Shown here piece after piece: positions 63,087-63,846 of a DNA stretch of 64,000 bases. Positions within the stretch are counted from its first letter, which is position 1; every line of letters starts with the position of its first letter. This DNA is from Escherichia coli (lineage in GTDB: Bacteria; Pseudomonadota; Gammaproteobacteria; Enterobacterales; Enterobacteriaceae): NCBI RefSeq assembly GCF_003334405.1, contig NZ_QOWM01000009.1; one strand, written 5' to 3'. The notes under the pieces were generated by a model. It was not told where the DNA came from. It did no database searches and was given only the letters and a program-made list of their open reading frames with translations. Both the position numbers and the translations under genes were made by a program.

Positions 63087-63254
63087 GTGAAGAAACTCAC
63101 CGATAAGCAAAAGTCCCGTCTCTGGGAGCTTCAGCGTAATCGTAATTTTCAGGCCAGTCGCCGTCTTGAAGGCGTCGAGATGCCTTTAGTCACTCTTACT
63201 GCCGCAGAGGCTTTAGCGCGCCTTGAAGAGCTGAGGAGTCACTATGAGCGATAA
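63087..63254 (+). CDS. yhfG: Small antitoxin-like partner of Fic (YhfG, 55 aa)
   Basis: Manual translation from GTG 63087 preceded by SD AGGGAGG: (M)[54 protein letters not shown]. Contains S-x3-E-G (SRRLEG). 3' end overlaps the fic start by 11 nt. Confidence 0.8.
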
Positions 63255-63846
63255 ATTCGGCGAAGGGCGCGATCCGTATCTTTATCCAGGCCTTGATATC
63301 ATGCGTAACCGGCTGAACATCCGCCAGCAGCAGCGGCTGGAACAGGCCGCTTACGAAATGACGGCGCTGCGTGCTGCGACCATTGAGCTTGGTCCGCTGG
63401 TGCGCGGTTTACCGCATTTGCGAACTATCCATCGCCAGCTGTATCAGGATATTTTCGACTGGGCAGGGCAACTGCGTGAAGTTGATATTTATCAGGGTGA
63501 TACGCCGTTCTGCCACTTTGCTTATATCGAAAAAGAGGGCAATGCCCTGATGCAGGATCTGGAGGAAGAAGGTTATCTGGTTGGCCTGGAGAAAGCGAAG
63601 TTCGTCGAGCGGCTGGCGCATTACTATTGTGAAATCAACGTGCTGCATCCCTTCCGGGTGGGAAGTGGTCTGGCACAGCGGATCTTCTTCGAGCAACTGG
63701 CGATTCATGCCGGATATCAACTGAGCTGGCAGGGTATCGAAAAAGAGGCCTGGAATCAGGCAAATCAGAGTGGGGCAATGGGGGATCTCACCGCACTGCA
63801 GATGATATTTAGCAAAGTGGTAAGCGAAGCCGGGGAATCTGAGTAA
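63244..63846 (+). CDS. fic: Fic-family protein (filamentation induced by cAMP)
   Basis: 200-aa ORF; the Fic motif region reads [12 protein letters not shown]; SD GAGGAG 5 nt upstream of the ATG. Confidence 0.93.

Follow-up and report, generated by a model that had tools for sequence, protein, structure and literature searches.

The window analyzed here is a stretch of 64,000 nucleotides of Escherichia coli DNA, and the locus of interest lies at its 3′ end. The gene fic, also named ecficT (63244..63846, + strand, ATG start), encodes a class I FIC-domain protein of 200 aa, hereafter EcFicT. It follows yhfG, or ecficA (63087..63254, + strand, GTG start), which encodes a FicA-type partner or antitoxin of 55 aa. 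The stop of yhfG and the start of fic overlap by 11 nt (63244..63254, + strand), a geometry of translational coupling, and Shine-Dalgarno sequences could be read in front of yhfG (GGGAGG, 63075-63080, + strand) and, for fic, within yhfG (GAGGAG, 63233-63238, + strand). The conserved upstream neighbour is ppiA (62410..62982, + strand), recognized from its open reading frame and from RefSeq annotation; the conserved downstream neighbour, according to RefSeq, is pabA, of which only the 5′ end (63878..64000, + strand) is present before the gene leaves the window. A promoter and terminator scan of positions 62300-64000 gave nothing convincing, with 2 promoter-like sites against 1.6 expected and none of them upstream of yhfG.

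Bases 62980-63900 showed 100% DNA identity to E. coli K-12 MG1655, where the RefSeq genes are ppiA, yhfG, fic and pabA, and this stretch was found in 5426/5426 complete E. coli genomes. The EcFicT sequence matched PDB entries 5JFZ_A and 5JFF_A across 200/200 residues (E about 1e-134) and scored 430.3 bits on the NCBIfam equivalog NF007672 (PRK10347; cutoff 181). YhfG, a "YhfG family protein" in RefSeq, matched the chains 5JFF_B and 5JFZ_B named "YhfG" (E = 6e-31) and the model NF007573 (126.9 bits, cutoff 77). These matches to MG1655, to the two structures and to both NCBIfam models identify the locus as the chromosomal yhfG-fic (ecficA-ecficT) of E. coli K-12, the founding member of the Fic family. 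EcFicT fell below the cutoffs of the equivalogs for VbhT (NF045983, 138.4 bits for a cutoff of 800) and for NmFic (NF046029, 65.9 bits for a cutoff of 230). Also, residues 58-152 match the Pfam profile PF02661 (Fic, E = 1.5e-13), which together with the FIC fold seen in its own solved structures places EcFicT in the Fic/DOC superfamily. The codon of Gly55 (63406..63408, + strand), site of the classical fic-1 allele (G55R) whose phenotype is described in PMC5033356, encodes the wild-type Gly here. The crystallized construct (5JFF/5JFZ) differs from the EcFicT of the window by Gly2 and His27 instead of Ser2 and Arg27, and it carries the engineered change G55R or E28G.

The FIC signature loop of EcFicT, H135-P-F-R-V139-G-S141-G-L143-A-Q-R146 (residues 135-146; 63646..63681, + strand; DNA CATCCCTTCCGGGTGGGAAGTGGTCTGGCACAGCGG), is degenerate. 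The initial annotation had claimed three substitutions (Val, Ser, Leu) in the Fic protein encoded at 63244-63846, and the reading frame bears this out: compared with HxFx(D/E)GNGRxxR, the D/E position is Val139, the Asn is Ser141 and the first Arg (R1) is Leu143. Thus, EcFicT departs from the motif of canonical Fic AMP-transferases at the D/E, N and R1 positions. A MAFFT alignment was made of 135 representatives (33-100% identity), taken from a search that covered 1.84 billion proteins exhaustively. The register of the motif is right, as 111/135 relatives are fully canonical in the same 12 columns; these, and the gapless alignment with Fic-1 of Pseudomonas bijieensis, rule out a mis-registration. 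A second Fic copy was also ruled out by a six-frame scan of the 64-kb window with relaxed patterns, which gave this single match and no other Fic-like motif; the Doc-like pattern HxFxxxNKR was absent from the window.

One of the three substitutions calls for a more nuanced reading. The replacement of Asn by Ser at position 141 is probably benign, since Ser can keep the structural hydrogen bond to Phe137, as argued by Stanger et al. (PMC5033356), and since the 72 species that have lost R1 (see below) are split between 37 with Asn and 35 with Ser.

The structures of EcFicT/EcFicA (PDB 5JFF and 5JFZ, UniProt P20605) were reported by Stanger, Harms, Dehio and Schirmer (PLoS One 2016, PMC5033356). 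The motif observation was published there with the crystal structure and is therefore already known, and the degenerate motif, the lack of detectable AMPylation, the hydrophobic pocket and the vertical inheritance of the clade have all been known since Stanger et al. 2016. The statement of the initial annotation that canonical AMPylation is unlikely agrees with the conclusion of these authors, and the alignment to VbhT and the view of the active site with YhfG that it suggested had, in effect, already been published by them (PMC5033356). Citing Harms et al. 2015, that paper states that neither auto-adenylylation nor target adenylylation by EcFicT could be demonstrated, even when the inhibition motif of the antitoxin is mutated. 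We found no report in the literature of a motif-restored EcFicT variant.

Several structural features described in PMC5033356 are of importance for the present analysis. A hydrophobic groove formed by A36, F71 and V139 and edged by Y67 and T40 was proposed as a putative new substrate site. Where R1 is present, its partner is Glu36; Tyr67 fills the space of this Arg and would collide with it. The adenine pocket appears to be present, the Asn in front of the motif shows strict conservation, and the anion nest could still accommodate a diphosphate. The authors also proposed a double lock, made of the antitoxin and of the N-terminus, and noted patches of conserved surface remote from the active site. 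They described EcFicT-like proteins as a vertically inherited enterobacterial subgroup derived from canonical AMP-transferases. The substrate, product and target of EcFicT were never found (PMC5033356), and its mechanism was still qualified as "elusive" in 2026 (PMC13327609).

The partner YhfG carries the inhibition motif S24-R-R-L-E28-G (residues 24-29; 63156..63173, + strand), a regex match to [S/T]xxxE[G/N]. A separate small upstream protein with this motif is the layout of class I Fic proteins (FicT/FicA). In the crystal structure, EcFicT and EcFicA form a tight 1:1 complex in which S24 and E28 of YhfG contact R146 (R2) of EcFicT, E28 by a salt bridge, and the YhfG mutation E28G lowers the Tm of the complex by 10 C (PMC5033356). 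This layout and the complex fit those of a type II toxin-antitoxin system; yet the synteny is fixed, inheritance is vertical and true plasmids are essentially without it. Statements in the literature on the toxicity of EcFicT conflict: PMC5033356 stands against a 2024 review, in which ectopic EcFicT is said to inhibit growth.

Two characterized systems are among the closest known. VbhT/VbhA of Bartonella schoenbuchensis (PDB 3SHG, 3ZC7, 3ZCB) shares the class I fold (match E = 6e-33), and VbhA is, like YhfG, a small upstream partner with [S/T]xxxE[G/N] whose Glu forms a salt bridge with R2 (PMC5033356). However, the motif of VbhT is canonical and its AMPylation targets are GyrB and ParE, whereas EcFicT has V139/S141/L143 and no AMPylation by it was detected. 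In addition, VbhTA resides on plasmids and is mobile, in contrast to the vertical inheritance of EcFicTA. Fic-1/AntF of P. bijieensis 2P24 (PDB 8WT0) is 39% identical to EcFicT, aligns without gaps and has identical residue numbers: H135, positions 139 and 143 and R146, as well as S24 and E28 of the antitoxin, carry the same numbers in the two complexes. The Fic-1 structure superposes on 5JFF with an RMSD of 0.9 A (PMC13327609). Unlike that of EcFicT, its motif is canonical (HPFREGNGRAQR), and it AMPylates GyrB at Y111 and deAMPylates with AntF (PMC13327609), both activities being reported for Fic-1 and not for EcFicT. Furthermore, the kinase Doc and the phosphocholine transferase AnkX are cases where the FIC fold was repurposed via changes in the signature motif, although their motifs differ from that of EcFicT (PMC5033356).

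The conservation of the locus was surveyed with one genome per GTDB species, which gave 80 loci of Enterobacteriaceae or close enteric relatives, with Fic proteins at 64-99% identity; YhfG homologs were identified by alignment to YhfG. A ppiA homolog was found upstream in 80/80 loci and pabA directly downstream in 76/80, Dryocola being among the four exceptions. The ppiA-yhfG-fic-pabA arrangement is common to Leclercia, Klebsiella and Salmonella. A YhfG homolog was present in all 80 loci and the 11-nt overlap in 79 of them. The fic gene was full-length (196-202 aa) in 80/80 species, none of which had a stop codon earlier than residue 196, and His135, Arg138 and Arg146 were found in every one of these Fic proteins. 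On the YhfG side, Ser24 was conserved in 80/80 loci and Glu28 in 79/80. Between E. coli, Salmonella, Klebsiella and Leclercia, pN/pS ranged from 0.11 to 0.21 for fic and from 0.14 to 0.31 for yhfG, with synonymous sites near saturation in both cases. The yhfG-fic locus is thus under purifying selection. A TGA at codon 13 of yhfG in E. albertii, where fic is intact, indicates that at least one lineage tolerates Fic with a disrupted partner. As for mobility, canonical FicT homologs were found on 888 plasmid records. The matches of EcFicT at ≥99% to records labelled as plasmids were all megabase-sized, save one record of 11 kb, and such sizes give no evidence of mobility for the degenerate type.

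The motif itself is not uniform in these bacteria. Across the 120 closest representatives of clusters at 90% identity (at least 79% identity to EcFicT), it reads HPFR[LIVF]G[SN]G[LMI][AV]QR, with two variants excepted, each in a single representative: a Cys at R138, the fourth position of the motif, and a Cys at 141. In the survey, 72/80 species have HPFR[ILVFA]G[SN]G[LIMV]xQR, with R1 replaced by Leu, Ile, Met or Val; this is the case for Klebsiella (HPFRLGNGMAQR). The other species keep R1. The Fic protein of Edaphovirga (64% identity) is fully canonical (HPFRDGNGRAQR). In Shimwellia (HPFRTGNGRAQR) and two further Enterobacteriaceae, the acidic residue alone is lost (HPFR[T/I/F]GNGRAQR), and Cedecea and Dryocola (HPFRIGSGRAQR), Franconibacter and one Enterobacter sp. 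have HPFRIG[S/T]GRAQR. These enterobacterial intermediates (Edaphovirga, Shimwellia, Cedecea, Dryocola, Franconibacter) are like E. coli in their ppiA-yhfG-fic order and in a length of 200 aa, at 64-72% identity, but unlike EcFicT they kept R1 along with E36/F67. In this series of extant motifs the degradation was stepwise, the acidic residue being lost before R1. The loss of R1 covaries perfectly with the neighbouring pocket: 8/8 species that keep R1 have Glu36 and Phe67, and 72/72 that lost it have Ala, Ser, Met or Thr at 36 and Tyr67. This covariation agrees with the structural argument of a Glu36-R1 pairing and of a Tyr67 clash (PMC5033356).

Among the 72 R1-lost species, 73/190 positions are invariant, including H135, G140, G142, Q145, R146, N132, T40, Y67 and F71. 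In the catalytic loop, positions 135-138, 140, 142, 145 and 146 are invariant and variation is confined to 139, 141, 143 and, more weakly, 144. Position 139 is Ile in 39 species, Leu in 23, Val in 9 and Ala in 1; position 143 is Leu in 45, Ile in 22, Met in 4 and Val in 1. Positions 139, 141 and 143 are near-invariant (Glu/Asp, Asn, Arg) in the 111 canonical relatives. Conversely, Thr40, Gln145, Tyr83, Gly55 and Cys90 of the R1-lost clade correspond to variable positions in the canonical relatives; G55, for example, is found in 72/72 R1-lost species and is mostly Asp in the canonical proteins. The N-terminal DPY motif is also retained (D10 in 72/72 and Y12 in 71/72). In the flap, Tyr83 and Glu79 are specific to the R1-lost clade, and position 84, which is Lys in 106/111 canonical proteins, is Gln, Glu, Lys, His or Arg in this clade. 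Constraint has thus been transferred to a different set of positions, which is the signature of a functional change and not of a functional loss.

Taken together, these data lead us to consider it probable that EcFicT is a repurposed and still catalytic Fic enzyme that would, under the gating of YhfG, act on a target specific to its lineage and use a substrate that contains phosphate but is not ATP. The purifying selection, the 73 invariant positions, the shifted constraint and the covariation of R1 with E36 and F67 argue for repurposing rather than for decay. The fold, the complex and the lack of detectable AMPylation are published; the continued catalysis and the non-ATP substrate are the part that we infer. 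EcFicT retains the FIC fold and sits in a tight 1:1 complex with YhfG, with Arg146 (R2) of the signature loop clamped by Glu28 and Ser24 of the partner. The ligands for the beta- and gamma-phosphates of ATP and for Mg2+ are gone, R1 having become Leu143 and D/E Val139, and because of the loss of the beta-phosphate and Mg2+ ligands no AMPylation with ATP is expected. The mutations E139A and R143A of Fic-1 abolish its AMPylation (PMC13327609). The general-base His135, the anion nest of Gly140 and Gly142, Arg146 and Asn132 are retained. Beside the loop, Thr40, Tyr67, Phe71 and Gln145, with Ala36, are newly invariant, and the groove found there is new and under strict conservation. Through the Glu28-Arg146 contact, YhfG could either gate or complete the enzyme.

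Several observations weigh against parts of this proposal. An invariant His135 could be structural, and the tolerance of any aliphatic residue at 139 and 143 looks more like a lost role than like a precise new contact. As for the gating by YhfG, the retention of E28 may only reflect the stability of the complex, considering the decrease in Tm caused by E28G. Also, against a repurposed enzyme stand the lack of any substrate, product or target, the disrupted yhfG of E. albertii and the growth inhibition by EcFicT mentioned in the review.

The alternative that keeps the most weight, although we regard it as rather unlikely, is that EcFicT is a pseudoenzyme or scaffold that performs no catalysis and binds a partner through its flap and its conserved surface patches, YhfG being a structural subunit. 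No activity of EcFicT was found in more than 30 years, positions 139, 141 and 143 of the loop are relaxed to generic hydrophobic or small residues, the conserved surface patches are distant from the active site (PMC5033356), and E. albertii tolerates a nonsense codon in yhfG. A precedent for a non-catalytic role is BepC, whose non-canonical FIC domain recruits GEF-H1 (PMC7842960). However, a scaffold does not easily account for the invariance of H135, G140, G142, Q145, R146, N132, T40, Y67 and F71 over 72 species. At several of these sites constraint is even tighter than in the active relatives, a pattern difficult to account for if no ligand is bound, and the Ser/Glu pair of YhfG that is directed to the active site is also kept.

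A slightly less likely possibility, built on the analogy with Fic-1, is that EcFicT-YhfG would be a dedicated deAMPylase, which does not write AMP but hydrolyses AMP-Tyr or AMP-Thr adducts by means of His135 and of Glu28 of YhfG. Candidate substrates would be AMP-GyrB or AMP-ParE resulting from incoming FicT toxins, or another nucleotidyl adduct. The Fic-1/AntF complex, with its 39% identity and the same numbering, deAMPylates AMP-GyrB (PMC13327609); E139A and R143A of Fic-1 keep this activity, and only H135A of Fic-1 and E28G of AntF abolish it (Chen et al., PMC13327609). EcFicT naturally carries V139 and L143, and H135 (80/80), R146 (80/80) and E28 of YhfG (79/80) are retained. R1 and D/E serve the beta-phosphate and Mg2+ of ATP, and an AMP-protein substrate has neither the pyrophosphate leaving group nor its metal. 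The adenine pocket is apparently present with its strictly conserved preceding Asn (PMC5033356), the nearest such Asn being the invariant N132. Canonical FicT homologs occur on the 888 plasmid records, and interbacterial Fic toxins reach E. coli (PMC9755527). A tight constitutive complex and a vertical inheritance are also more expected of a housekeeping enzyme than of a toxin. Thus, the mutagenesis of Fic-1/AntF and the conservation pattern combine into a coherent hypothesis that would be cheap to test. We found no report of a deAMPylation activity of EcFicT in the literature, and PMC13327609 does not raise for EcFicT the idea of an enzyme that only deAMPylates.

Compared with the known glutamate-dependent deAMPylases (FICD, EfFIC and Fic-1/AntF), EcFicT/YhfG has the His and the inhibitory Glu at R2, but the acidic metal ligand is absent, replaced by Val139 (I/L/V/A in the clade); this ligand is required in EfFIC and dispensable in Fic-1. 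Indeed, the class III protein EfFIC needs the acidic residue of the motif for deAMPylation, as its E115A mutant is dead (PMC6408439), and deAMPylation by Fic-1/AntF requires a divalent metal (PMC13327609), while the EcFicT loop has no acidic ligand. The flap is also unlike that of GyrB-targeting FicTs, Lys84 being variable and Tyr83 and Glu79 clade-specific, and this difference at 79, 83 and 84 argues for a target other than that of the gyrase-modifying enzymes. Furthermore, VbhT and YeFicT (2024 review) and CccR (PMC9755527) inhibit the growth of E. coli hosts that presumably carry the native fic-yhfG, since the locus is present in 5426/5426 complete genomes. Glu28 is also structural, as E28G lowers the Tm by 10 C (PMC5033356). 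If this reading were nevertheless true, what began as a toxin-antitoxin module would now be passed on vertically as a housekeeping enzyme that erases nucleotidyl adducts and that might defend gyrase, Topo IV or a protein of cell division against incoming FicT toxins, and the path from a canonical motif to the loss of the acidic residue, and then to the loss of R1 with E36A/F67Y, would be a path to an eraser.

It is improbable that EcFicT is a conditional nucleotidyl transferase, using ATP or another NTP/NDP-X only after removal of YhfG and release of the N-terminal DPY "lock", or acting on its true target only. The accommodation of a diphosphate in the anion nest and the proposed double lock of antitoxin and N-terminus (PMC5033356) fit such a mechanism, as do the conservation of the DPY motif (D10 72/72, Y12 71/72) and the growth inhibition by ectopic EcFicT cited in the 2024 review; AnkX uses CDP-choline and Doc transfers phosphate, both with altered motifs (PMC5033356). 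Nevertheless, no adenylylation was seen even with a mutated inhibition motif (PMC5033356). The equivalents of R1 and D/E are individually essential for AMPylation by Fic-1 (PMC13327609), and Tyr67 would clash with an R1 Arg and occupies its space (PMC5033356). Finally, although three functional positions of the motif are off consensus and the antitoxin gene of one species contains a nonsense codon, the view that yhfG-fic is a decaying toxin-antitoxin relic whose motif changes are random damage is refuted by what was found on selection and conservation, namely the 5426/5426 complete E. coli genomes, the full-length gene in 80/80 species, the pN/pS of 0.11-0.21 for fic, the 73 invariant positions, the fixed synteny and the 11-nt overlap, and it deserves practically no credence.

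The database name "putative adenosine monophosphate-protein transferase Fic" (NF007672) credits EcFicT with an activity for which there is no experimental support. The stepwise series of motifs provides natural intermediates for mapping when AMPylation was lost.

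Natural intermediates of the FIC motif were found within a single ppiA-yhfG-fic locus type, in loci L082, L081, L080, L079, L072, L068, L067 and L061 of the species survey (fic at 2501-3100 in every locus), where they form a stepwise series. The Fic protein of Edaphovirga carries the canonical motif (HPFRDGNGRAQR), Shimwellia and two other loci of the series lack the acidic residue alone, and the group made up of Cedecea, Dryocola, Franconibacter and Enterobacter sp. shares the motif HPFRIG[ST]GRAQR. The first arginine (R1) is the final loss in the series, and it is accompanied every time by the substitutions E36 to Ala and F67 to Tyr. 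Edaphovirga cremea (L082, upstream of 2501) is the only species whose Fic motif is canonical throughout, and the inhibition motif of its YhfG homolog reads STALDG, with Asp in place of Glu at the inhibitory position. In Trabulsiella spp. (L041, L048 and L083, upstream of 2501), the YhfG inhibition motif is SRRLER, with Arg at the [G/N] position that usually follows the inhibitory Glu.

Among the representatives from the protein search, P0236 (511 aa, 34% identity) presents the motif HPFRRGNGLAIR, in which R1 is replaced by Leu, apparently independently, and Arg occupies the acidic position. The motif of P0248, HPFREGNGRTQE, has Glu at the second arginine (R2), a signature tied to antitoxin-independent deAMPylation in the 2026 Fic-1 paper (PMC13327609).

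The product of window 63244-63846 is named "putative adenosine monophosphate-protein transferase Fic" in RefSeq and NCBIfam (NF007672), and this name has been carried into thousands of enterobacterial genomes, although published assays detected no activity of this kind. The 2016 structure paper (PMC5033356) stresses that EcFicT is without any demonstrable activity. [quoted passage not shown] The crystallised constructs (5JFF, 5JFZ) bear Gly2 and His27, whereas codons 2 and 27 of fic (window 63247-63249 and 63322-63324) encode Ser2 and Arg27, as in MG1655; His27 is found in Salmonella Fic too.

Directly past the ppiA stop and ahead of yhfG lies a G+C-rich inverted repeat (window 62992-63013; GCGCGGGCAA..TTGCCCGCGC), plausibly a ppiA terminator or REP-like element; a simple terminator scan of 62300-64000 called no terminator there. 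The plasmid-search match H11 (NZ_CP069919.1:5675-6274) places fic-yhfG on a small record of 11,338 bp that bears a Klebsiella oxytoca plasmid label. Its Fic protein is 100% identical to that of E. coli, against about 84% for the chromosomal K. oxytoca copy, and the record represents either contamination or misassembly, or else rare mobilisation of the locus.

The sole disrupted antitoxin in the 80-species survey was that of Escherichia albertii NBRC 107761 (NZ_BBMY01000054.1), in which TGA replaces the TGG of yhfG codon 13 (L007:2380-2382); elsewhere this yhfG is intact, as is the fic gene that follows it (94% identical). Because Stanger et al. recorded a stop codon in strain TW07627 (PMC5033356), the yhfG stop may be common to the whole species. 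It could be read through, or else could be a sign that this Fic does no harm without its partner.
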